A stretch of 13,702 bases of DNA, taken from positions 89,422 through 103,123 of the forward strand of contig JBGAQA010000009.1 in the NCBI GenBank assembly GCA_044220955.1, read 5' to 3'. Under the pieces are notes generated by a model. It did not search any database and had not been told where the DNA came from. It worked only from the letters and a program-made list of their open reading frames with translations. Made by a program: the position numbers and the translations under genes. The DNA is from Sandaracinaceae bacterium (GTDB taxonomy: Bacteria; Myxococcota_A; Polyangia; Polyangiales; Sandaracinaceae). Below are positions 1,131 to 13,015 of this stretch, one piece after another (position 1 is the stretch's first letter; each line of letters starts with the position of its first letter).

Positions 1131-1157
1131 ATGATAACCGAGGCTCTCGGGTATGCT
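1131..1157. promoter_or_regulatory. Candidate compact bidirectional promoter
   Basis: TATCAT on the minus strand (1136-1131) and TATGCT on the plus strand (1152-1157) are placed symmetrically around the inverted repeat CCGAG-GCT-CTCGG (1138-1150), between divergent genes less than 50 nt apart. Confidence 0.5.
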
Positions 1158-3837
1158 CGACTTCGTGTCGCGCCCCGCCCCGAGCCGCCTGCTCCTCGCC
1201 GTCCTGTTCGCGGCCGCTTGCACGGGCGCGCCGGCGCCCGATCTCGACGCGAGCATCCGCGACGCCGGGCACGACGCGGCCACGAACGACGCGGGCCACG
1301 ACGCCGCGCCTCCCCCGGGACCTCGCTGGTGCGGCCTGTGTCACGTGGACGCGGACTGCGGCAACGCGCTCTGTCTCTCGCTCGGCTCGGGTGGTGCGGA
1401 GCACGTCTGCGGCGCGCAGTGCAACACCGACCTCGAGTGCGACGCGATCCGCGCCGACGCCACGTGCATGGAGGTCTACCCGGGCCTGCCGCGCCAGTGC
1501 GTTCCGCGGAGCGGCTCGTGCACGGTGAGCGCACGCGGAAGTCCCTGCTCGGAGGCGGTGCCGTGCACGGGGACCTACGACGTCTGCGTCTCGTTCGACG
1601 TCCGGGCGCCGTCCGTCTGCACCGCGCGATGCAACACGAGCGCCGACTGCCCGATCGGGATGCGCACCTGCGTCGCGGCGCGTGACGGGACCTTCTGCGC
1701 GCCCGATGCGACCTACGGGATGGACACGTGCGCGTCCGGTCGTAGCCCCGCCTCGCCCCTCTGCGCCTGCTCGGCCGAGAGCGCGACGTCGATTAGTGGC
1801 GCGCTGCTCGCCTCGAGCGGCCTCGACGCGTGCGACCTGCGCTTCGACGAAGCGGCCCTCGACGCCTTCGGCCCGGCCGCGGCGCACGACCGCTTCCGGC
1901 TCGACTTCACCGACCGCATCCGCTCGTACGCGCCCGAGGTGCCGCGCTTCGGCCACGAGATCGCCATGGTGCTCGATCACGCGGCCACGACGGGCACGCC
2001 GGTCACGAGCGCGCTCACCGAGAGCGCGACGCTCGCCGACCTCGCGCCGCTTCGTCCGAGCGTGCCGACCGACGCGACCGACCTGCCGGGCGAGCTCGCC
2101 GCTCTCATCACCGAGGCCGGCGGCACGCCGAACCTCGCCGAGCTCACGAGCGCGACGGGCAGTCTGCCCCCCGGCACGCAGGCGACGATCGCGCCCATCG
2201 TCCGCGCGACCCGCAGCGCGCTGATCGCGCGCGAGATGGCCCTGGCCGGGCTCGACGCGCCCACGAGGATGGAGGCGTTCGACGTGGGCTCGGCGATGTT
2301 CCTGCCGGCGGTGGGCTTCGCCATCTCGCCAGCGGACACCGGCACGCAGGGCCTGCTGCTCGGCGACGTCCGGACGGACGTGATCGCGCAGGCGGCGATC
2401 GACCTCAGCGCGACCCTCGAGACGTACGCGATCGAGACGCTGGTCGGGAACACCATCCACCTCTTCGTCGACACGCCGGCCGGCGCGATCGTGATGTCCG
2501 GAGACAGCGACGACGTGCACGCGAACCCGGCGATCTTGCTGCTCATCGACTTCGGCGGGGACGACACGTACCGCGGCGCGACGGGCGCCACCGCGTCGCC
2601 GGCGAACGGCGTGTCGGTGGTGATCGACGTCGCGGGCATGGACACCTACGGCTACGCCGAGGTCCCGGTCCCGTCGGACACGAGCGGACCACCGGACAGC
2701 CGGCGCCTGCCCTCCGACGGCGGTGGTCGCGCGCCGGCCGGCGCCACGAACGGGCCTTTCAGCCAGTCGATCGCGTCGCGTCAGGGCGCCGGCCGTCTCG
2801 GCATCGGCATGCTCTTCGACTTCGGCGCCGACGTCGATCACTACCGCGCGCTCCGGATGTCGCAGGGCTACGGGGCGCTCGGCGTCGGCGTGCTCTACGA
2901 CGGCGGAGGCGACGACGTGTACGAGGGGGAGGCCGCCGTGCAGGGCGCGGCGTCGTTCGGCCTCGGCCTGCTCTACGATCGCGGCGGCGACGATCACTAC
3001 GTCGCGTACGCGTTCGCGCAGGGCTTCGGGTACAGCCGCGGCGTCGGCACGCTCTACGACCAGGCGGGCACGGACGACTACTTCTCCCACCCCACCGACG
3101 TCCTCTACTACTCGCCGCAGAACCCGGGCGGCTCCAACTCGAGCTTCTCGCAGGGCGCGGGGTTCGGCCGCCGCGCGGACTTCGGAGACGGCGTGAACAT
3201 GTCGGGCGGGCTCGGCGTCCTTCGCGACGCGACCGGCGACGACACGTACACGGTCGGCATCTTCGGCCAGGGCACCGGCTACTGGTTCGGCACCGGGCTC
3301 TTGCTCGAGGGCGACGGCGCCGACCACTACGACGGCTGGTGGTACGTGCACGGCTCGGCCGCGCACTATGCCGTCGCGGCGCTCGTCGACGAGGGCGGGG
3401 GCGACACCTATCAGGTCGCGAGCCCGGGCGATCCGGCGCGAAACACCTCGGTCGGCGTCGGACACGACTTCTCGATCGGCTGGCTCGTCGACCGCGGCGG
3501 CGACGACGTCTACCACGCGCCGAACCTCTCGCTGGGCTCGGGCAACGCGGCCGGCTATGGGTTCTTCGTCGACCTCGCGGGCGACGACGTCTACACCGCC
3601 ACGAGCGACTTCTCGTTCGGGAACGCGTCGATCGAGTCGCCCGGCGACACGCTGCGGGCGATGGCCGGCACCCTCGGGCTCTTCGTCGATCGCGGCGGCG
3701 CCGACTCGTACACGCGACCGACTCCGGCCCCGGTCGCCGAGAACGCGACGTGGACCCAGGAACAGCACCCCGGGATGGGCGAGCACGGAGCGGGCGTCGA
3801 CGTCGCCAGCGGGACGGTCGGGCTGGGCCTCGATTGA
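1153..3837 (+). CDS. Lipoprotein with N-terminal Cys-rich domain and C-terminal Gly/Asp-rich D-x-x-G-x-D-x-Y repeats (probable Ca-binding beta-solenoid); function unknown
   Basis: 894-aa ORF with coding-like codon bias. RLLLAVLFAAA|C lipobox (Cys at 1219), DAGHDAA linker, Cys-rich segment ~1330-1835, helical Ala/Leu-rich middle, then about 12 repeats such as QGAASFGLGLLYDRGGDDHY. Start is ATG 1153 or in-frame GTG 1165. Confidence 0.85.
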   Translation: MLDFVSRPAPSRLLLAVLFAAACTGAPAPDLDASIRDAGHDAATNDAGHDAAPPPGPRWCGLCHVDADCGNALCLSLGSGGAEHVCGAQCNTDLECDAIRADATCMEVYPGLPRQCVPRSGSCTVSARGSPCSEAVPCTGTYDVCVSFDVRAPSVCTARCNTSADCPIGMRTCVAARDGTFCAPDATYGMDTCASGRSPASPLCACSAESATSISGALLASSGLDACDLRFDEAALDAFGPAAAHDRFRLDFTDRIRSYAPEVPRFGHEIAMVLDHAATTGTPVTSALTESATLADLAPLRPSVPTDATDLPGELAALITEAGGTPNLAELTSATGSLPPGTQATIAPIVRATRSALIAREMALAGLDAPTRMEAFDVGSAMFLPAVGFAISPADTGTQGLLLGDVRTDVIAQAAIDLSATLETYAIETLVGNTIHLFVDTPAGAIVMSGDSDDVHANPAILLLIDFGGDDTYRGATGATASPANGVSVVIDVAGMDTYGYAEVPVPSDTSGPPDSRRLPSDGGGRAPAGATNGPFSQSIASRQGAGRLGIGMLFDFGADVDHYRALRMSQGYGALGVGVLYDGGGDDVYEGEAAVQGAASFGLGLLYDRGGDDHYVAYAFAQGFGYSRGVGTLYDQAGTDDYFSHPTDVLYYSPQNPGGSNSSFSQGAGFGRRADFGDGVNMSGGLGVLRDATGDDTYTVGIFGQGTGYWFGTGLLLEGDGADHYDGWWYVHGSAAHYAVAALVDEGGGDTYQVASPGDPARNTSVGVGHDFSIGWLVDRGGDDVYHAPNLSLGSGNAAGYGFFVDLAGDDVYTATSDFSFGNASIESPGDTLRAMAGTLGLFVDRGGADSYTRPTPAPVAENATWTQEQHPGMGEHGAGVDVASGTVGLGLD
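2490..3712 (+). repeat. About 12 protein-level repeats, consensus (Q)G-x-G-x-x-G-h-G-h-L-h-D-x-x-G-D-D-x-Y
   Basis: IDFGGDDTY, IDVAGMDTY, FDFGADVDHY, YDGGGDDVY, YDRGGDDHY, YDQAGTDDY, RDATGDDTY, LEGDGADHY, VDEGGGDTY, VDRGGDDVY, VDLAGDDVY and VDRGGADSY read from the translation. The shortest spacing is 26-27 aa, with variable loop insertions. Confidence 0.8.
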
Positions 3838-3851
3838 GCTAGAGTTGCGGG

Positions 3852-6800
3852 ATGACCTTCCCGCGGCCTCGGTCTTCGCTCGCCTCGTTGCTCCTGCTGC
3901 TCGTCGTGACCCTCGTGGCGACGCGATGCCCGCGCGTACATCGACCAGGCCGACGGGACCGTCGTGCCGCAGACGACGCGCCTGCAGCAGTGCCTCGACC
4001 TCCCCGCGACCGCCGAGACGAGCGTCGGCGCGGTGGACGCGATCGCGAACGCGCAGGTGCTCCCCGAGGCGTACCGGCCCGTGTTCGACGCGGTGAGCGG
4101 GCACTACCGCGTCACGTTCCTCGACATCGGCGAGGGCGCCGGGTACCGGAACACCTTCGGCTGGTTCTGGGTCGGCACCGACGTCACGAACCCGGCGAAC
4201 CTGCACACGGTGTTCGGCTGCCGCACGTACGCGACGTGCAACTGCCCCTGCACGACCACGCGCACCGTCACCGTCGACTTCGACACGCAGACCGGCTTCG
4301 CCGCCGGCCGCCCGATCGGCTTCTGGCTCCGGAGCCCCGAGTACCTCGTCGGCGGCAGCGAGGGCGGCGCCTTCCCCGGTGGCTGCACGCTCCCCGTCGG
4401 CTGCGATCCGGCGGGCGCCAACGTCGACGACTCCTGCGGCGGCCGCAACGACACGAACAACCGCATCTACTTCACGAGCGCGGCGCTCAACGACGACGGC
4501 GACTACCGGCACTTCCTCGTCTATCGCAGCGCGACGCGCACCAACACGTACTACTTCGGCTTCGAGGATCTCTACCGCGGCGGTGACAACGACTTCGAGG
4601 ACATGCTCGTGCGCGGGACGGGCCTGGTGCCCGACTGCGATCCGCGCGCGGAGGCGTGCGACACCATCGACAACGACTGCGACGGCCTGATCGACGAGGA
4701 CGTGACCATGGCGTGCGCCACGGCGTGCGGGTCCGGCACGCGCGCGTGCATGGCCGGCTCGTTCGGCGCGTGCAGCGCGCGCATCCCGACCACCGAGACG
4801 TGCAACAACGTGGACGACAACTGCGACGGCACGACCGACGAGGGTCTCTCGCGCTCCTGCTCCAGCATCTGCGGCAGCGGGACCGAGATCTGCATCGCCG
4901 GCACCTACGCCGGCTGCACGGCGCCCACGCCCGGCATCGAGAGCTGCAACGGCGTCGACGACGACTGCGACGGGCCCGTCGACGAGGGCCTCACGCGCGC
5001 GTGCGCGTCGCTCTGCGGCAGCGGCACCGAGACGTGCACGGCGGGCGTCTACGGCGGCTGCACCGCGCCCGCGCCGATGACGGAGACCTGCAACGCGCTG
5101 GACGACAACTGCAACGGGCAGGTCGACGAGGGGCTGACCCGCGCCTGCTCGAGCGCGTGCGGCAGCGGCACCGAGGTGTGCGTGGCGGGCTCGTACGTCG
5201 GCTGCACGGCGCCGACGCCGCGCGTCGAGGCGTGCAACAACGTCGACGACGACTGCGACACGATGATCGACGAGGGCCTGATGCGCGCCTGCTCGAGCGC
5301 CTGCGGCACCGGCACCGAGACGTGCTCGGCCGGCGCGTGGGTCGGGTGCGACGCGCCCGCGCCCGGCGTCGAGGTCTGCAACAACGTCGACGACGACTGC
5401 GACGGCGTCGTCGACGACGGCAACCCCGGCGGCGGGGCGGCCTGCGTTCCCTTGCCGGACGGCGGCATCGGCGCGGCCGACGATGGAGGCGCGGCGGCCG
5501 ACGGCGGCGTCGTGTGCGCCAACGGGATGGTCGTCTGCGTCGACGGCGCGCTCACCTGTCGCGGCTCGACCAGCGGCTCGCGCGAGGTCTGCAACTGCAT
5601 CGACGACGACTGCGACGGCACCATCGACGAAGAGGCGAGCGGCGATCTCTGCCCCGGCGGCCTCTGCTTCGCCGCCGAGTGTCAGTGCATCGATCCGTGC
5701 GGCATGAGCGAGTTCGTCTCGTGCCCGCCGGGCCAGATCTGCGACGAGTCGCTCGCCGACCCCTCGATGGGGATCCGCGGCTACTGCGTGCTCGGCATGT
5801 GCGCCGGCGTGACGTGCACCGGCATGGAGGTCTGCAACCCGCTCACGGGCGCGTGCGAGGACCCCTGCGACGGGGTCATGTGCCCCACGGGCCAGGTGTG
5901 CCTCGGCGGCGGCTGCGTGTCGGACACCTGCTACGGGCGCGGGTGCCCGCGCGGCCAGCTCTGCCGGACGCCCGCCGCCGGCGGGACGCCCGCGTGCGTC
6001 GCCGATCCCTGCGCGAGCGTGACGTGCGCGGCGGGCCAGTACTGCGACGACGGAGCCTGCGTCGCCGACTGCGGCGCGGGGTGCCGCACCGATCAGGTCT
6101 GCGTGGACGGAGCCTGCGCCCCGGCCCCCTGCGGCGGGCACTGCATCGCGGGCGAGTCCTGCATCTCGGGCACGTGCACGATGAACCGCTGCACGATGCC
6201 CTGCGGCCTCGGCCGGGTCTGCCAGGGCACGACGTGCGTGGACGACCCCTGCGCCTCCATCCGCTGCCCGTCGGGCCTGACGTGTCGCGAGGGCGCGTGC
6301 TGGGGCAGCGGCGTCGGCGCCGCCCCGGTGCGCGGCCTCGCGGCGGGCGGCGGGCTGATCTGCTCGGCGTCTGCGGGCGGCCCGGGGAGCGGCGCGGCCG
6401 GCGTCCTCGGGCTCGTCCTCGCGCTCGCCGGGCTGCTCGCGCGCCGGAGCAGGCGCCTGCGCGCGTCGCGCCTGGCCCTCGCGGCATTAGCCGCCTCGCT
6501 CGGTGCCGGCGGCTGCACCGTCGAGCCGTACTGTTTCTCGGGCTGCGACGACGACCCCATCCGACTCGACGCCGGCGAGGCGGGCACGCCGGATGCCGGC
6601 CCGCGCGAGGACGCCAACATCCGTGTCGACGGCTGCGTGCCCACCGGCGCCGAGATCTGCAACGCGATCGACGACGACTGCAACGGCGTCGTCGACGACG
6701 GGTTCGACCTCGACGCCGATCCCGCGAACTGCGGCCGCTGCGGCAACGCCTGCGCCATCTCGCACGCGTTCCCGGCTTGCGCGGCGGGCTCCTGCGCGAT

Positions 6801-9309
6801 CGACCACTGCCAGATGGGCTGGCACGACCTCGACGGCGTGCTGACCAACGGCTGCGAGTACGCCTGCCCGCCCTCGGGCGACGAGCTCTGCGACCACATC
6901 GACAACAACTGTGACGGGCGCATCGACGAGGGCATCGACCTCACGATGAGCCTCGCGAACTGCGGCAGCTGCGGCAACCTCTGCAGCTTCCCGGGAGCGA
7001 ACGCGGCCTGCGTGTCGAGCACCTGCGTCGTGGCGAGCTGCCGCGCCGGGTTCGTGGACGTGAACTCCGACCCGACGGACGGCTGCGAGTATCGCTGCAC
7101 GGCGACCTCCGCGACCGAGACGTGCAACGGCGTCGACGACAACTGCGACGGGACGATCGACGAGACCTTCGACACGATGGGCGACCCGATGAACTGCGGG
7201 ACCTGCGGCACGATCTGCAGCTTCCCTCACGCGACGCCGCGCTGTGGCCTCGGCGTTTGCACGTTCGGTCCGGGGGACTGTGCTCCCGGCTTTCACGACG
7301 TGGACGGCGACCCGCTCGACGGCTGCGAGTACAGCTGCACGCCGAGCGCCGCGCCCGACACGTGCGACGGCATCGACCAGGACTGCGATGGCCGCGTCGA
7401 CGAGGCCGACCCGATGGTCGGCGGGACGTGCGGCGCGGCCGTCGGCGCGTGCCGCACCGGCACCACGGTCTGCGTGCTCGGCGCGCTCGGGTGCAGCGGC
7501 GACATCGGCCCCACCGCCGAGACGTGCAACGGGATCGACGACGACTGCGACGGCACGACGGACGAGTCGAGCGCGGCCTCGCCGATCCCCGGCGTCGGCG
7601 ACCGCTGCGGCCCGAGCAACGTCGGTCGCTGCGCGTACGGCCAGGTCGTGTGCACGACCGGCGCCCTGACGTGCGGCGGCACGCTGGTCGGTCCGATCGC
7701 CGAGACGTGCAACGGCGTCGACGACGACTGTAACGGTGCGGTGGACGACGGGCTGACGACGCCTTCGCCGGCCTCCGTCCCGACGTGCGTCGAGGTGCGC
7801 GGCGTCTGCGCCGGGCGCGTCCCGACGTGCCGTGGTGCGAGCGGCTGGGCGTGCGATCTGCCGGCCACCTACCAGGCGGTCGAGACGCTCTGCGACACGC
7901 TCAACAACGACTGCGATGCGTCGGCCGACGAGAACTGCATCGCGCCCACCGGCACCGACCTGCGCCTCGACACGATGGACGCGCAGAGCCTCACGAACTC
8001 GCTCGACCCGAGCATCCTCGGCTCGGGGAGCGGCGCGACGACGCGCCTGCACGTCGCGTGGCGCGATCTGAGCGGCGGTACGGTGCCGCACGTGTACACG
8101 ATCCGCAGCCTCGACGCGGGCGGGACGTTCCCGGGCGCTCCGAGCCGCGTCGACACGGCGGGCGGCGCGGTCTTCGCGCCCAGGATGGTGCTCCCCGGCG
8201 CGACCGGCGTCGTGTGGGGCTGGCCGGACTTCCGCGGCGGCACCGGGTACCGGGAGTCGTACTCTCGCCGCTCGGCCGACTCGGGGGCCACGCTCGCGGC
8301 CGAGGTGAAGATCAACGCGCTCGGCGGCACCGCGACGCAGGACTCGTACGACCTCGCGCTCGCGAGCTCGGGGACGAACGTCTACGCGACCTACAACACG
8401 TTCACGGGCACCCGGCAGCGTCACGTCTTCGTCGCGCGCTCGACGGACTCCGGCGCGACGTGGAGCACGCCGCTGCAGCTCTCGACGCCCGCCGGCGCGA
8501 CCTTCGTCGCCGCCGAGCCGCGCGTCGCCGCCGCCGGCAGCAACGTGTTCGTGACGTGGCGCGACAACCGCTCGGGATCGCTGGACGTGTACGTGCGCGT
8601 CTCGACCGACGCGGGGGCGACGTTCGGAGCCGAGACCCGCATGGACCTCGGCACGCCCGCTGGCGCGTCGTCGAGCTTCTCGCCCGCCGTCGCGGCGAGC
8701 GGCACCGGCGCGTGGGTCGTGTGGATCGACGATCGCGACACGGGCTCGTTCGACGTCTGGATGAACCGCACGACGAACGCCGGCGCGAGCTGGCTCGCGG
8801 GCGCCGTGCAGCTCGACCAGGACCCGCTCCATCACGACTCGATCGAGCCGCACGTGATCTCGCCCGCGGCGGGCACCGTGATCGTCAGCTGGCTCGACTA
8901 CCGCTTCGGCCAGCCCGACCCCTACAGCGTGCTCTCGACCGACTCGGGCGCGACCTTCGCGGCGCCCATCCGGCTCGACACCGGCACGACGCCCGGCGCC
9001 TCGGCGAGCCACGACCTCGACATCGCCGCGAGCGGCACGCTGGTCGCGGCGGTGTGGGCCGACTCGCGCAGCGGCCTCACGGACGTGTACGCGAACTTCT
9101 CGCTCGACCAGGGCGTGACCTGGCAGCCGCAGGACTACCGGCTCGACTCGGGCGCGGCGGGCAGCGCCGACTCCGAGACCCCGCGCGTCTGGGCGACGAC
9201 CGGCGCGTTCCACACGGTCTGGGTCGATCACCGCCGCGGTGCCTCGTGCCCGTACGCGGGCACGACCAGCTGTCCGAACGGCGACATCTACTACCGCCGC
9301 GTGCAGTGA
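3852..9309 (+). CDS. Large Cys-rich surface (poly)protein: signal peptide, DUF4114-like domain, MopE-type repeats, internal MYXO-CTERM-like tag plus internal lipobox, more MopE-type repeats, BNR/Asp-box beta-propeller. Apparent frameshift at ~3921-3925; the track's ORF is 3964..9309
   Basis: 1781-aa ORF 3964..9309. The FGFEDLYRGGDNDFEDMLV motif matches DUF4114 as I recall it. There are 14 E-x-C-[ND]-x-x-D-x-[DN]-C-[DN]-G-x-x-D-[ED]-type motifs and 7 S-x-D-x-G-x-T-[WF]-type Asp-boxes. The signal peptide MTFPRPRSSLASLLLLLVVTLVA starts at ATG 3852 in another frame and joins DARA|YIDQADGTVVPQ in the main frame. Confidence 0.85.
4651..5418 (+). repeat. Tandem 144-bp (48-aa) MopE-type Cys-rich repeats, 5 full units plus a partial sixth
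   Basis: The E-x-C-[ND] motif starts at 4651, 4795, 4939, 5083, 5227 and 5371 (exact 144-nt period). Consensus ExCNxxDDxCDGxxDEGLxRACSSxCGSGTExCxAGxYxGCTAPxPxx. Confidence 0.9.
5692..6300 (+). repeat. About 9 short four-Cys repeats (D-P-C-x-x-V-x-C-x-x-G-x-x-C-x-x-G-x-C type)
   Basis: Examples in the translation: DPCDGVMCPTGQVCLGGGC, DPCASVTCAAGQYCDDGAC, DPCASIRCPSGLTCREGAC. Confidence 0.75.
6337..6516 (+). other. Internal MYXO-CTERM-like sorting tag directly followed by a lipoprotein (SPase II) signal peptide
   Basis: LAAGGGLI-C(6361)-SASAGGPGSGAA-GVLGLVLALAGLLA-RRSRRLRASR-LALAALAASLGAGG-C(6514)-TVEPYC, all in one open frame. Confidence 0.75.
6652..7356 (+). repeat. Three 77-80-aa Cys-rich repeats (MopE-type motif + NCGxCGxxC + GCEYxC)
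   Basis: Units start at 6652, 6883 and 7117, with the next MopE-type motif at 7357. Each unit contains NCGxCGxxC ... G[WF]xDxxxxxx[ND]GCEYxC. Confidence 0.85.
8104..9123 (+). repeat. Seven BNR/Asp-box repeats (beta-propeller blades)
   Basis: SLDAGGTF (8107), SADSGATL (8272), STDSGATW (8440), STDAGATF (8602), TTNAGASW (8770), STDSGATF (8935), SLDQGVTW (9100). Spacing is 162-168 nt. Confidence 0.85.
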
Positions 9310-9329: not shown

Positions 9330-10223
9330 ATGCCCGAGCTCCCCGACCTCACGGTGTACGTCGAGGCGCTCGAGCGCCGGATCCTCGATCAGCCGATCCA
9401 GAAGATCCGCCTCGCGAGCCCCTTCGTGCTCCGCTCGGTCGAGCCGGGGGTCGCCGAGGTCGTGGGCAAGCGCGTGCGGGGGATCGAGCGGCTCGGCAAG
9501 CGGCTCGTCTTCGTCCTCGACGACGACCTCTTCGCCGTCGTCCACCTGATGGTCGCGGGGCGCTTCCAGTGGAAGGACGGGCCGGGCGCGAAGGTGCCCG
9601 GCAAGGTGGGCCTGCTCGCGATCGACTTCCCGAGCGGGACGCTCCTCTTGACGGAGGCGAGCACGAAGAAGCGCGCGAGCCTGCACCTCGCGCGCGGGCG
9701 CGCCTCGCTCGAGGCCTTCGCGCGCGGTGGGCTCGAGCCGCTGGGGTCGAGCTTCGTGGCGTTCGCCGAGGCGCTCCGGCGCGAGCGCCACACCCTCAAG
9801 CGCGCGCTCACCGACCCGCGTCTGTTCGCCGGCATCGGGAACGCCTACTCGGACGAGATCCTGCACCGCGCGAGGATGTCGCCCGTGACGCGGACCGACC
9901 GGCTCGACGACGCCGCGATCGCGACGCTGCACGGCGCGACGCTCGAGGTACTGGGCGAGTGGACCGCGCGGCTGCGCGCCGAGGCGGGGCCCGCGTTCCC
10001 GGCGAAGGTCACGGCGTTCCGCGCGGAGATGGCCGTGCACGGCAAGTTCGGTCAGCCCTGCCCGGTCTGCGGGACGAAGGTGCAGCGGATCGTGTACGCG
10101 GAGAACGAGTCGAACTACTGCCCGCGCTGTCAGACGGACGGCAAGCTCCTGGCCGATCGCTCGCTCTCGCGCCTGCTCAAGGAGAACTGGCCGCGCACGA
10201 TCGAGGAGCTCGAGGGGCGATGA
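9330..10223 (+). CDS. mutM: Fpg/Nei family DNA glycosylase/AP lyase (MutM-like)
   Basis: N-terminal MPELPD (catalytic Pro2/Glu3), GKRL, HLMVAG, H2TH motif FAGIGNAYSDEIL, and C-terminal zinc finger CPVC...CPRCQ. It may be a paralogous subfamily rather than the true mutM ortholog. Confidence 0.93.
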   Translation: MPELPDLTVYVEALERRILDQPIQKIRLASPFVLRSVEPGVAEVVGKRVRGIERLGKRLVFVLDDDLFAVVHLMVAGRFQWKDGPGAKVPGKVGLLAIDFPSGTLLLTEASTKKRASLHLARGRASLEAFARGGLEPLGSSFVAFAEALRRERHTLKRALTDPRLFAGIGNAYSDEILHRARMSPVTRTDRLDDAAIATLHGATLEVLGEWTARLRAEAGPAFPAKVTAFRAEMAVHGKFGQPCPVCGTKVQRIVYAENESNYCPRCQTDGKLLADRSLSRLLKENWPRTIEELEGR

Positions 10224-11134
10224 GCGCCGACGTCCTGGTGCCCGCTGCGCTGCGGGTCTTCGCCGCGGTCGCCGAGCAGGGCGGCGTGACGGCCGCGGCG
10301 CGCTCGCTCGGTCTGAGCCAGCCGGCCGTGACCGCGGCGATCCACAAGCTCGAGGCCGAGCTCGAGACGACGCTCCTCGTGCGCACGAGCCGCGGCGTGA
10401 CGCTCACGGTGACGGGTCGGGCGCTGCTCGAGCACGCGCGCCGGCTGGAGCGGGCGGCGACCGAGACGCGGCGCGAGATCGGCGGCCTCGAGAGCGAGCC
10501 GCGCGGGCGCTTCACGATCGGGTGCCACGAGAGCCTCGGGGCGTACTTCCTGCCGCCTCTCTTCGCCCACTTCTTCGCCGAGCACCCGGGCATCGACCTC
10601 GTGCTGAGCAACGCCAACTCGCGCGACGTCGAGCGCGCGGTGATCGAGCGCCGCGTGGACTTCGGCATCGTCGTGAACCCCGAGCGGCACCCGGAGAGCG
10701 TCGTGACGCCGCTCTTCGTCGATCGCGTGGCGGTCGTGGCGCACGCTCACCTCTTGCGCGGCAAGCTCGGCGCCGCCCAGCGGATCTCCGAGCACGCGCT
10801 CGTACACGTGCCGGCGCTGCGCCAGACGCAGTTCATCCTCGGCGCGCTCGAGCAGGCGGGCATCACCCCGAAGCGCGTCGTGCCCTGCGCGAGCCTCGAG
10901 CTCGTGAAGAGCCTCGTGCTCGACCGCGCGGGCCTGGGGATCTTGCCGCTCCGCGTGGCGCGCTACCACACGCCCAAGGACACGGTCCGCGTCGTCTCGC
11001 GCGAGCTGCCCGGCTTCGACGACACCATCTCGCTCGTGCGGCGCGTGGACCTGCACGTGACGGCCGCCGCGCGCCTCGTGCTCGACGCGTTCGCGGCACG
11101 CGGGAAGGCGCTGACGCGCCATCAGAACGATTGA
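10220..11134 (+). CDS. LysR-type transcriptional regulator
   Basis: 3' part of ORF 9239..11134. ATG 10220 overlaps the fpg stop (ATGA). HTH: LRVFAAVAEQGGVTAAARSLGLSQPAVTAAIHKLEAELETTLLVRTSRGVTLTVTG, followed by a substrate-binding domain (FTIGCHES...HPGIDL...VDFGIV...GLGILP). 304 aa. Confidence 0.95.
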   Translation: MSADVLVPAALRVFAAVAEQGGVTAAARSLGLSQPAVTAAIHKLEAELETTLLVRTSRGVTLTVTGRALLEHARRLERAATETRREIGGLESEPRGRFTIGCHESLGAYFLPPLFAHFFAEHPGIDLVLSNANSRDVERAVIERRVDFGIVVNPERHPESVVTPLFVDRVAVVAHAHLLRGKLGAAQRISEHALVHVPALRQTQFILGALEQAGITPKRVVPCASLELVKSLVLDRAGLGILPLRVARYHTPKDTVRVVSRELPGFDDTISLVRRVDLHVTAAARLVLDAFAARGKALTRHQND

Positions 11135-11157
11135 TGGTGCTGATACGAACGTTCGAT
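11119..11157. promoter_or_regulatory. Two tandem LysR-type T-N11-A boxes upstream of the WD40-like lipoprotein gene
   Basis: Perfect dyad CCATCA-N7-TGATGG (11119-11137; T11122-N11-A11134) and a weaker ATA-N9-GAT (11143-11157; T11144-N11-A11156), 22 nt apart, in a locally AT-richer patch. Confidence 0.65.
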
Positions 11158-11192
11158 TGTGCGGATGGATGGCGCGCGTGCACGATGGCCTC

Positions 11193-12302
11193 ATGCACAC
11201 ACGAACGACGCTCCTCTTCGCGGTCCTGGGCACCCTGACCTCCGGCGGCTCGCTCGGCTGCACGGCCTCGCACGCGCTGCCCGAGCCCGAGCCCGACCTG
11301 CACGCCGTCGTCCGGCCTCACGGCACCGCGCCCGTGGCCGCCGTCGTCGACCTCGACTCCTGCTTCGGCGGCGGCGGCGCCCTGCTCGAGCTCGGCGCGG
11401 TGAACAACGACGACCAGGCCGACCACGGCTCGCTCCTCACGTTCGGCATCTCACCCTCGGGCGTCGTCGCCGCGGCGGGCGAGGACGGCACGCTGAAGTT
11501 CTGGACGATGGACGCCACGCTCGTCGGCGAGGCCGACCCGGGCGTGCTGACGTACGGCCCCGAGCTCGGCGGCGCGCCCATCACCGACCTCGCGTTCACC
11601 GAGGACCACGCGATCGCGGGCGACGTGCGGGGCCTCGTCCAGCGCCTCGGGGCCGAGGGCACGGCCGATGTGCTCGGAGGGACGATGCCCGACGTCCCGA
11701 TCGCGTCCGTCGCGTTCGACCGCGCGGCGCAGCGTCTCGCGCACGCGCAGGGGGACAGCGCGATGCCCGACGTGGCGCGGCTGGTCGTGGGCACGCTCGA
11801 CGGCGCGCAGTACGTCACGCTGAGCGACACGCTCGCCTCGATCACCGACCTCGCGTTCACGCCGGAGGGCGTGCTCGTGATCGGCGGCACCGAGGGCGCG
11901 CGCGCGGCCCTCGAGCTGCGCGACGGCGCCGATCCCACGCGGATCGTCGCGCGCCTCGACGTGGGCGACGACGCGAGGGTGGTGGAGGTCGCCGCGGCGC
12001 GGGAGGGCGCGGCGATCGTGGTGGCGACGACGAACCACCTCTACGCGATCGACGGCGAGCGCGTGAGGCTGCTGGGGTCGAGCGACGTGGCGCTCCGCAG
12101 CGTGGACCTCACGCCGAGCGGAGATCACGCGTTCACGGTCGACGCGAGCGGCACGCTGATCGTGCGATCGACGGCGGACGGTGTCGAGCTCGCGCGCACG
12201 AGCATCACGACCGGGTTCGGCGTGCGGATCGACGCGACGGGCCAGCGCATCGTGGTCGGGGCGACCGACGCGATGCTGCACGTGCTCGCCTGTTCGCGCT
12301 GA
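11193..12302 (+). CDS. WD40-like beta-propeller lipoprotein
   Basis: Within ORF 11157..12302. Best start is ATG 11193: MHTRTTLLFAVLGTLTSGGSLG|C (Cys at 11259). WD-like blades: AAAGEDGTLKFWTM, ITDLAFT (twice), LRSVDLTPSG, VVGATDAMLHVL. 369 aa. Confidence 0.8.
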   Translation: MHTRTTLLFAVLGTLTSGGSLGCTASHALPEPEPDLHAVVRPHGTAPVAAVVDLDSCFGGGGALLELGAVNNDDQADHGSLLTFGISPSGVVAAAGEDGTLKFWTMDATLVGEADPGVLTYGPELGGAPITDLAFTEDHAIAGDVRGLVQRLGAEGTADVLGGTMPDVPIASVAFDRAAQRLAHAQGDSAMPDVARLVVGTLDGAQYVTLSDTLASITDLAFTPEGVLVIGGTEGARAALELRDGADPTRIVARLDVGDDARVVEVAAAREGAAIVVATTNHLYAIDGERVRLLGSSDVALRSVDLTPSGDHAFTVDASGTLIVRSTADGVELARTSITTGFGVRIDATGQRIVVGATDAMLHVLACSR

Positions 12303-12328
12303 GTCTCGCTCTCGTTCACGCTCCGTTC

Positions 12329-13015
12329 GTGCTCCCCATCCTGCACCGAGAGCCCGGGCTCGTCGTCGTCGACAAGCCCTCCGGGCTCTCGGTGCATCGC
12401 GGCTGGGACGCCTCGCACGACGTGGTGATGACCCGCGTGCGCGACCAGCTCGGGCAGTGGGTGTACCCGGTGCATCGGCTCGATCGCGGCACGAGCGGCT
12501 GCCTGGCCCTCGCGCTCGACCAGGACGCCGCCCGCGAGCTCGGCGCATCGTTCGCCGAGGGCCGCGCGCGCAAGAGCTACGTCGCGCTGGTCCGGGGCGC
12601 GCTGAAGGACGAGCGCGGCACCATCGATCATCCCGTGCCGCGATCCGAGGACGGCCCGCGGGTCGAGGCGCTCACGGAGTTCGTGCGGCTCGCGCTGCTC
12701 GATGGCGCGACGCTCGTCCTGGCGCGGCCTCGCACGGGGCGGCTGCACCAGATCCGACGCCACTTCCGCCACCTCGGTCACCCGCTCCTGGGCGACACGA
12801 CCTGGGGCGACAACAAGGCCAACAAGAGGCTGCGCGACCCGGTGGGCCTGCGCCGCCTCGCGCTCCACGCCCTCACCCTGAGCCTGCCCTTCCGTGGACA
12901 CGACGTCCACGCGTCGGCCCCGCTGCCCGACGATCTGTCGCTGCCCCTGGCGCGGCTCGGCCTCGAACGTGATGCGCTCGAGGCCCTGCTGGCCGCTCAC
13001 TGGCCAGCCGCGTAG
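12329..13015 (+). CDS. truC: RluA-family pseudouridine synthase, TruC-like (tRNA pseudouridine-65)
   Basis: 3' part of ORF 11159..13015, from GTG 12329: MLPILHREPGLVVVDKPSGLSVHRGW...VMTRVRDQLGQWVYPVHRLDRGTSG (catalytic HRLD), YVALVRG, PRTGRLHQIRRH, GHPLLGD, LALHA. It has no S4 domain, and its N-terminus resembles E. coli TruC as I recall it. 228 aa. Confidence 0.88.
   Translation: MLPILHREPGLVVVDKPSGLSVHRGWDASHDVVMTRVRDQLGQWVYPVHRLDRGTSGCLALALDQDAARELGASFAEGRARKSYVALVRGALKDERGTIDHPVPRSEDGPRVEALTEFVRLALLDGATLVLARPRTGRLHQIRRHFRHLGHPLLGDTTWGDNKANKRLRDPVGLRRLALHALTLSLPFRGHDVHASAPLPDDLSLPLARLGLERDALEALLAAHWPAA

Follow-up and report, generated by a model that had tools for sequence, protein, structure and literature searches.

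Can a single bacterial gene encode two separately anchored surface proteins, held together by sorting signals that normally stand at the ends of a chain? The question is raised by a gene in a Sandaracinaceae bacterium (assembly GCA_044220955.1, a 7.5-Mb draft genome of 72.5% GC), lying within a stretch of 13,702 nucleotides (contig JBGAQA010000009.1, positions 89,422 to 103,123; contig C301 in our numbering), which was analysed as a whole and is referred to below as the window. In the middle of its product, a stretch resembling the MYXO-CTERM sorting tag runs directly into a lipoprotein signal. We conclude that the single 1818-aa chain is probably a polyprotein, from which the usual sorting enzymes of the cell would release two proteins, a tagged LecB-like one of 809 aa (product A) and a propeller lipoprotein of 931 aa (product B).

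Gene start and continuity of the sequence

The first-pass annotation had described an ORF of 1781 aa, which misses the true start. Compared to the contigs of runs X1, X2 and X4, each of which is without one base at 3923/3924, the window carries one extra base; once this is set aside, ATG 3852 and a signal-peptide-like stretch are joined to the ORF, giving the 1818 aa mentioned above. GTG 3964, also considered as the start of the ORF, was ruled out by the same extra base. The tag-carrying protein has thus a predicted N-terminal signal peptide (judged by eye), and the homologues display the same first mature residue, preceded by similar signal-like stretches.

At the junction itself, the positions 6440-6480 are bridged without gap or stop by the contigs of six of the eight runs compared, from four studies (P1-P4), one of these runs being possibly the source sample of the window: X1 (5604-6685, with 0 differences), X2 (5604-6527), X4 (6417-6649), X5 (6150-6649), X7 (6372-6532) and X10 (6150-6527). 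Runs X12 and X13 have no listed contig piece over the junction, which speaks neither for nor against it. A fusion created by the assembly was rejected on the basis of the six bridging runs. Among the 22 runs listed for the sequence, none is of RNA, which says nothing either way on expression.

Anatomy of the junction

The features of the gene are listed in Table 1. All the junction elements share frame 1, uninterrupted by any stop from the first to the last, so that the succession originally proposed for this locus (Gly-rich motif with Cys, helix, Arg cluster, lipobox with Cys) was recovered in full, in frame and uninterrupted. The topology was deduced from hydropathy and the positive-inside rule. 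The absence of in-frame ATG, GTG or TTG codons from 6331 to Cys2, also put forward in the first-pass annotation, was borne out by a codon scan of positions 6250-6519, in which GTG 6328 is the sole such codon.

Table 1. Features of the focal gene (positions in the window)
Feature	Position	Strand	Basis and details
True start codon (ATG 3852), then a 28-aa stretch predicted as a Sec/SPI signal peptide, A-x-A site at its end	3852..3936	+	Frames, contigs; signal judged by eye
Product A, head: DUF4114, LecB/PA-IIL-like fold, invariant acidic motif; predicted Ca-dependent lectin	3937..4632	+	PF13448, 37.7 bits (cut-off 27)
Product A, Cys-rich stalk: MopE-type repeats, then other Cys-rich repeats	4633..6345	+	PF11617; 88 Cys in mature A, tag Cys excluded
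Gly-rich motif with terminal Cys1 (6361-6363), resembling the MYXO-CTERM signature; predicted to be lipidated and cut by myxosortase	6346..6363	+	
Linker and first predicted membrane helix of the tag (6400-6441)	6364..6441	+	Kyte-Doolittle mean 2.8 over 13 residues
Arg-rich loop, predicted to act both as the cytoplasmic tail of the tag and as the n-region of the second signal; CTG 6457 with GGAG upstream	6442..6471	+	
Second predicted helix and lipobox (6472-6513), Cys2 (6514-6516); internal lipoprotein (SPII) signal	6472..6516	+	Cys2 aligned in 39/39; N-terminal lipobox Cys of split relatives
Product B, Cys-rich stalk	6517..7944	+	PF11617; 56 Cys after Cys2
Product B, tip: Asp-box (BNR) beta-propeller, eight strand groups in the model; stop at 9307-9309	7945..9309	+	PF13088; pLDDT 95.6

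Neither signal occupies its usual place. Cys2 is residue 860 of the mature chain, hence the lipoprotein signal is not at the N-terminus, a position that it has in the split relatives only. Likewise, 955 aa follow the basic cluster of the tag, whereas TIGR03901, the MYXO-CTERM model, is defined for a C-terminal position, which is found in the split relatives alone.

Conservation of the junction among relatives

Relatives were collected from both halves of the gene. With part B as anchor, the propeller was matched in 26 of the 32 genomes of the family and in 33 of 401 genomes sampled from the class. At the family level, long regions were obtained for 27 of the 28 matches outside the window (that of G015 was not extended), and four loci, in which the junction is missing or lies beyond the contig (G005, two in G029, and G013:C310), are uninformative; the unpublished genome G029 is counted solely in the family propeller tally and carries no junction claim. 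Whenever the junction was on the contig, the family loci are fused (24/24, window included). As for the class, 20 of the 31 further matches, hand-picked for long contigs and mixed ORF lengths, provided 15 fused and 5 split loci, bringing the propeller-anchored total to 39 fused loci in 37 genomes. With part A as anchor, the best 80 of the 169 relatives found by the head profile, all of them metagenome-assembled, comprise 54 loci fused in frame, 13 split loci and 13 ending or breaking before the junction, i.e. a fused share of 54/67 among the informative ones; this set overlaps the propeller-anchored one and contains one duplicate pair (L117, L119). As to whether homologues keep the junction in frame or divide it into two genes, a check suggested along with the first-pass annotation, most are thus fused and some are split. 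Since the relatives are kin, the conservation counts are not independent of each other.

The two Cys and the Gly-Cys of the lipobox, on which the initial proposal was built, proved to be conserved. Cys1 and its Gly-rich lead-in are present in all 37 complete junctions (in G009 and G373 the contig ends within it), and Cys2 falls into one aligned column in 39/39 fused loci, even though the aligned windows were placed on the basic cluster and Cys2 itself was not used. Position -1 of the lipobox is Gly in 37/39 and Gly or Ser in 39/39 loci. The lipobox consensus has Leu, Val or Ile at position -3; such residues were found in only 16/39 loci and Ala in 12, among which the focal gene. The internal h-region, with a Kyte-Doolittle mean of 2.41, equals in hydrophobicity the genuine N-terminal signals found in six split B genes (2.3-3.0).

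Between the two Cys, the spacing varies from 40 to 82 aa while the reading frame is kept in every fused locus, implying that many indels took place and that all were frame-preserving. The letters of the loop diverge, whereas its charge, the hydrophobicity and both Cys stay: 3 to 13 Arg/Lys are found in 39/39 fused loci, and acidic residues are nil in 36/39. A low-GC relative uses Lys in place of Arg, showing that the charge of the loop is no GC effect. Concerning the Cys numbers, they are even in 28/28 A parts (tag Cys excluded) and in 34/38 B parts after Cys2, the other four being odd, and four fused loci have lost the two Cys following Cys2 but retained Cys2. Cys2 thus looks unpaired, and this parity pattern fits a free thiol, bearing in mind that it comes from related, non-independent sequences.

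Product B might instead be made mainly from a separate start within the junction, read-through giving only product A. This alternative, which we regard as improbable, draws on the focal CTG 6457 with its upstream GGAG, from which a 19-aa textbook lipoprotein signal would begin, and on a small drop of GC3 in the loop and h-region relative to the gene body (0.81 vs. 0.87; lower in 26/37). Yet, in 19 of the 39 fused loci the usable span holds no ATG, GTG or TTG at all; a Shine-Dalgarno-like motif combined with one of these codons exists in a single locus (1/39) and a near-cognate codon with such a motif in two (2/39), whereas the split loci have GGAG(G) and ATG. No conserved internal start was found in the junction among the 39 fused loci, and a separate start would leave the missing stop and the kept frame unexplained.

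Resemblance of the tag to MYXO-CTERM

The assignment of the internal tag to MYXO-CTERM held for its layout and not for its score or position. The invariant-Cys signature, followed by a hydrophobic helix (identified by hydropathy only) and a basic cluster, is present in 37/37 complete junctions. Against TIGR03901, the focal tag obtained 10.1 bits (joint top hit), below the curated cut-off of 20. Together with its counterparts in three relatives of the same genus, it belongs to a set of single-Cys tags with 10-13 bits or no hit, the focal one having one Cys and not a CxC motif. No MYXO-CTERM match came out when the entire ORF and an 80-aa piece around the junction were scanned against NCBIfam (E 0.1). 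The genome-wide TIGR03901 search, in which 150 of 214 candidates were scored, placed 47 of the 86 listed matches above the cut-off, and the focal locus was absent from the matches listed.

A second model was built from 61 terminal tags of the same genome. The focal tag reached 10.6 bits with it, vs. a maximum of -0.5 for its 200 shuffles, and among 9000 shuffles covering all 45 fragments, only 3 attained 10.6 bits. The focal tag therefore resembles MYXO-CTERM beyond chance; given its TIGR03901 score and the weak tags of its same-genus relatives, it is to be seen as a MYXO-CTERM look-alike rather than a member by position or score.

In single-Cys tags such as this one, a mutual pairing of Cys1 and Cys2 is possible.

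Split loci and history of the fusion

In the split loci, part A stops just past the Arg cluster and part B starts by means of a GGAG(G) and an ATGA overlap. This pattern was found in 6/6 propeller-anchored cases (the five orthologous loci, plus a pair of paralogs from the focal genome) and in 12/13 head-anchored ones. The split products are a MYXO-CTERM protein and an ordinary lipoprotein, separated exactly at the junction, which indicates that the halves are complete stand-alone proteins, coupled in either arrangement.

A quick maximum-likelihood tree (unrooted) was computed from 43 propellers, leaving out G021 and the propeller-less paralog. The five split loci appear in it as two separate starred groups among the fused ones, requiring two changes, and forcing them into one group was rejected (AU p 2.6e-37, under a simpler model). 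With a midpoint root, the root itself being not inferred, the propeller phylogeny suggests that the fused state is likely ancestral and was split twice.

These data also bear on the possibility that the fusion was produced by misassembly, or that a stop between two genes was lost recently and neutrally. The slip at 3923/3924 indicates that the window holds one assembly error, and the split paralog pair resides in the same genome. Such an origin, of very small probability, is nevertheless refuted: six runs, drawn from four studies, bridge the junction gap-free, fused loci occur in 37 genomes with propellers sharing 27-72% identity with the focal one, and the split loci lie as two distinct groups among the fused ones.

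The two predicted products

The sizes of about 810 and 930 aa announced for the two products in the first-pass annotation were computed as 809 (A) and 931 aa (B), with a hairpin of 50 aa in between. The domains expected were also retrieved, i.e. a DUF4114 head (PF13448) on A and a propeller tip (PF13088) on B, so that the first-pass interpretation is supported on these points as well.

The head of product A combines the traits of LecB/PA-IIL-type lectins: the DUF4114 match, the PA-IIL fold, and an acidic motif predicted to bind Ca. This motif, at residues 210-222, is invariant in the alignment, and the heads are 75-83% identical among near relatives. The structural model (pLDDT 83.9) retrieved with Foldseek 15 top rows consisting exclusively of LecB-family lectins, with E-values of 0.006-0.07, none being below 0.001. 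Superposed on PA-IIL, it gave a middling match (Z 7.1, rmsd 3.0, 110 of 114 residues aligned). A search of the PDB sequences with the head profile returned 0 hits.

The propeller of product B contains 7 Asp-box motifs, and its nearest folds, similar only in a loose way, are sialidase and lectin propellers (TM 0.34-0.54). GH33 sialidases have a six-bladed propeller and a [FY]R[IL]P motif. Such an identity was rejected for the tip of product B, which lacks [FY]R[IL]P, has eight strand groups in the model and shows a TM of about 0.4 to sialidases. The prediction of a complex between head and propeller, with a median of 0.17 (mark: 0.32), speaks neither for nor against their pairing. A and B would most likely represent a glycan-binding surface pair.

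Machinery and recurrence in the genome

The genome encodes MrtC, on contig C230 (233 bits, cut-off 195, with five of the eight CPBP matches scanned), and has five matches for Lgt, two for LspA, and a GspD above cut-off. A prefiltered scan of the same genome for tags gave 98 tag-like hits, 82 of them terminal and 16 internal. Eleven of the latter were set aside by eye as long-tailed terminal tags or polytopic membrane proteins. The five others, focal tag included, run directly into a second signal whose cleavage site is plausible (by eye), of lipoprotein type in two ORFs and of SPI type in three. The four other ORFs of this kind are unrelated in domain content; one of them, on contig C263, displays Ig repeats, tag, signal and OmpA, and is an MXAN_5598 look-alike (see below).

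Proposed maturation of the precursor

Since the joint is kept in most relatives and split into two genes in some, it is likely that one precursor gives, by cutting, two proteins each anchored by lipid. Established knowledge covers Sec export, the positive-inside rule, the processing of lipoboxes by Lgt and LspA, and the Cys-dependent cleavage of TraA by MrtX (PMC11980579). The hairpin, its two cuts (one at each Cys), the lipidation, the display at the surface and the 1:1 output are our inference, as follows. The N-terminal signal would direct part A through Sec and be removed by signal peptidase I. The helix of the tag would then act as stop-transfer, the Arg loop remaining cytoplasmic, and the second helix would restart export for part B, the resulting hairpin having Cys1 and Cys2 on the outer face. 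Lgt would lipidate Cys2 and LspA cut before it, releasing the 931-aa lipoprotein with its Cys stalk and propeller tip, while Cys1 would be lipidated and myxosortase MrtC would cut after it, yielding the 809-aa protein, anchored by its C-terminus and made of a LecB-like head on a Cys stalk. The hairpin of 50 aa would remain after both cuts. If TraA and the type II secretion route are a guide, A and B would probably be found at the surface, as an equimolar and most likely glycan-binding pair. In the literature searched, which lacks most subscription papers, no account was found of Lgt/LspA acting some 880 residues into a chain. Further points count against this reading: the focal tag is below the TIGR03901 cut-off and has a single Cys, Leu, Val or Ile at -3 is found in a minority of the lipoboxes, four B parts have an odd number of Cys, Cys1 and Cys2 could pair with each other in single-Cys tags, and the match of the head to the lectin fold is middling.

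A less complete processing can also be envisaged, where one internal site (most likely the lipobox) or none is cut, the product remaining, in whole or in part, an inner-membrane hairpin with two periplasmic arms and the tag being mainly a stop-transfer helix. The weak TIGR03901 scores and single Cys of the focal and same-genus tags go in this direction, as does the partial presence of uncut TraA at the surface in an mrtX mutant, reported in the accessible part of PMC11980579. Nonetheless, a plain hairpin anchor requires neither Cys1 with its Gly-rich lead-in (37/37) nor Cys2 (39/39), and the terminal tags of the split relatives are equally uneven: 3/6 pass the TIGR03901 cut-off, vs. 16/37 for the fused tags, and the terminal paralog tag of the same genome has no hit. 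We therefore consider partial or absent cutting unlikely, though less so than a separate start for B, and retain the two-cut polyprotein as the probable reading.

Comparison with known systems and significance

The production of two mature envelope proteins from one gene by means of an internal signal sequence is known from FbcH, the cytochrome b-c1 precursor of Bradyrhizobium japonicum. FbcH differs from the focal gene in that it serves a respiratory complex and undergoes a single internal signal-peptide cut, and is not known to have a sorting tag or a lipobox.

The closest case is MXAN_5598 of Myxococcus xanthus, in which, according to the available part of Guo, Haft and Wall (2025, PMC11980579), a MYXO-CTERM stands in mid-protein, preceded by an adhesin-like N-terminal part and followed by a second envelope protein. 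It is presented there as a probable TraA-TraB-like fusion, with the N-terminal part proposed to be processed and surface anchored, and it appears in a proteome table of outer-membrane vesicles (PMC4158809, accessible in part). The same portion of PMC11980579 calls internal MYXO-CTERM motifs rare and states that tags work in mid-protein, with two papers cited, including one on an archaeosortase tag; it also reports that the cleavage of TraA by MrtX needs the tag cysteines, and raises the question of whether the acyl-transferase sought for MYXO-CTERM is Lgt. The rarity implied by the first-pass annotation was thus overstated, the internal tag being shared with MXAN_5598. The differences, as far as that portion goes, are that the second half of MXAN_5598 is a beta-barrel/OmpA with no second signal peptide mentioned, whereas in the focal gene the tag is succeeded by a lipoprotein signal, both halves are predicted to be lipid anchored, and the fused form is the majority of a whole family.

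With TraA and the MYXO-CTERM/myxosortase system (MrtX, MrtC and MrtP; 10.1101/2023.06.07.544157 and PMC11980579, in their accessible parts), the focal gene has in common a variable head, a Cys-rich stalk, a Gly-Cys motif, a helix and an Arg cluster; it departs from it by its tag, far from the C-terminus and below the HMM cut-off, and by its partner, a propeller lipoprotein and not TraB. As for the head, the available text on AcMBP-1 of Acanthamoeba describes DUF4114 as a mannose-binding domain, this domain having been shown to bind mannose-agarose (PMC11934332), and that on PilY1.1 of M. xanthus proposes that DUF4114 binds Ca and sugar (PMC9109919). From these excerpts, AcMBP-1 resembles part A in having a DUF4114 head followed by Cys-rich repeats and a membrane anchor, but both it and PilY1.1 are single proteins, while the focal gene is predicted to code for a two-product chain.

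In the literature searched, which lacks most subscription papers, no paper was found on a MYXO-CTERM tag joined to a lipoprotein signal, and an internal tag was found in PMC11980579 only (as seen in part). The internal tag is therefore already known; for the double-lipid joint, its place as the majority and probably ancestral form in a family, and its repeated use by one genome, no description came up in the literature searched. On a broader scale, we put forward, with somewhat more doubt than confidence, that Myxococcota reuse the hairpin of tag, Arg loop and signal as a polyprotein linker, with, in the present family, an ancestral fused state, two fissions, and three peptidases giving equimolar lectin and propeller arms. 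The signal-cleaved joints of viral glycoprotein precursors would be a counterpart of this hairpin.

Bacterial stoichiometry is thought to be mostly set via operons; the linker could display two proteins 1:1. C-terminal sorting tags and lipoprotein signals are, for their part, defined by their position at the chain ends. That both are kept mid-chain by a family spanning dozens of genomes points to membrane geometry, and not position, as what myxosortase and Lgt/LspA read. The hairpin would set the tag Cys beside the lipobox Cys in opposite orientation, which bears directly on Lgt as the acyl-transferase of MYXO-CTERM. Finally, since end-anchored predictors would miss the second product, the surface proteomes of such bacteria are probably undercounted.

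Start of the focal gene and its neighbours

At window positions 3923-3924, one surplus assembly base, absent from the contigs of three runs, cuts ATG 3852 and the signal peptide off from the long ORF. Fourteen nucleotides upstream of this ATG ends the gene of an 894-aa predicted lipoprotein, for which no Pfam or NCBIfam match was found at an E-value of 0.1. As for the downstream genes, none was seen to relate to the tag-plus-signal arrangement. Within the junction itself, an in-frame CTG with a GGAG 7 nt upstream (6446-6459) would begin a lipoprotein signal of 19 aa; this pattern is present in just two of the 39 fused loci, i.e. those with both parts in one frame.

Features in the window and in its own genome, G000 (C, contig; tag-then-signal ORFs from sequence only)
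Feature	Location	Strand	Remarks
894-aa predicted lipoprotein	window 1153-3837	+	Cys-rich start, many Gly/Asp-rich repeats
Fpg/Nei-like glycosylase, LysR regulator, WD40-like predicted lipoprotein, RNA pseudouridine synthase	window 9330-13015	+	downstream genes
GspD	C301:31662-33677		focal contig
Subtilase, tag, lipobox, second tagged protein	C111:188188-191265	-	
Tag, SPI-like signal, second tagged protein	C77:68520-72548	+	
Ig repeats, tag, SPI-like signal, OmpA	C263:4911-11423	+	
Tag-then-signal ORF	C251:14491-16227	-	low-complexity, less certain
Split paralog pair (L054)	C222:5821-11756	-	

Sorting machinery and similar ORFs

Five Lgt-family matches above cut-off in this one genome, located on contigs C267, C40, C299, C236 and C279, are candidates for the MYXO-CTERM acyl-transferase. 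The type II secretion protein GspD, also above cut-off, is encoded on the focal contig, about 60 kb upstream. Sequence-based prediction gave four further ORFs (L164-L167) with an internal tag and then a signal, among which the one on C263 resembles MXAN_5598.

Family variants and exchangeable heads

Among the relatives (L049-L052 and L075), there is a class of longer fused proteins, some 2350 aa in length, that share this junction. Two paralogs of the fused type are present in genome G020, and likewise two in G400. In L094 (genome G022), L114, L128 (G059) and L161, the repeat-rich part A stalk is interrupted by frame breaks or a stop, probably assembly slips; downstream of them, the fused junction is intact in all four. 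Concerning the split paralog pair, its stalks and junction motifs are the same as those of the focal gene and its heads are different: one is vWA-like, as judged by eye (a Pfam search gave no match for it), and the other is an FGE-sulfatase-like tip. The pair suggests a scaffold carrying interchangeable heads.
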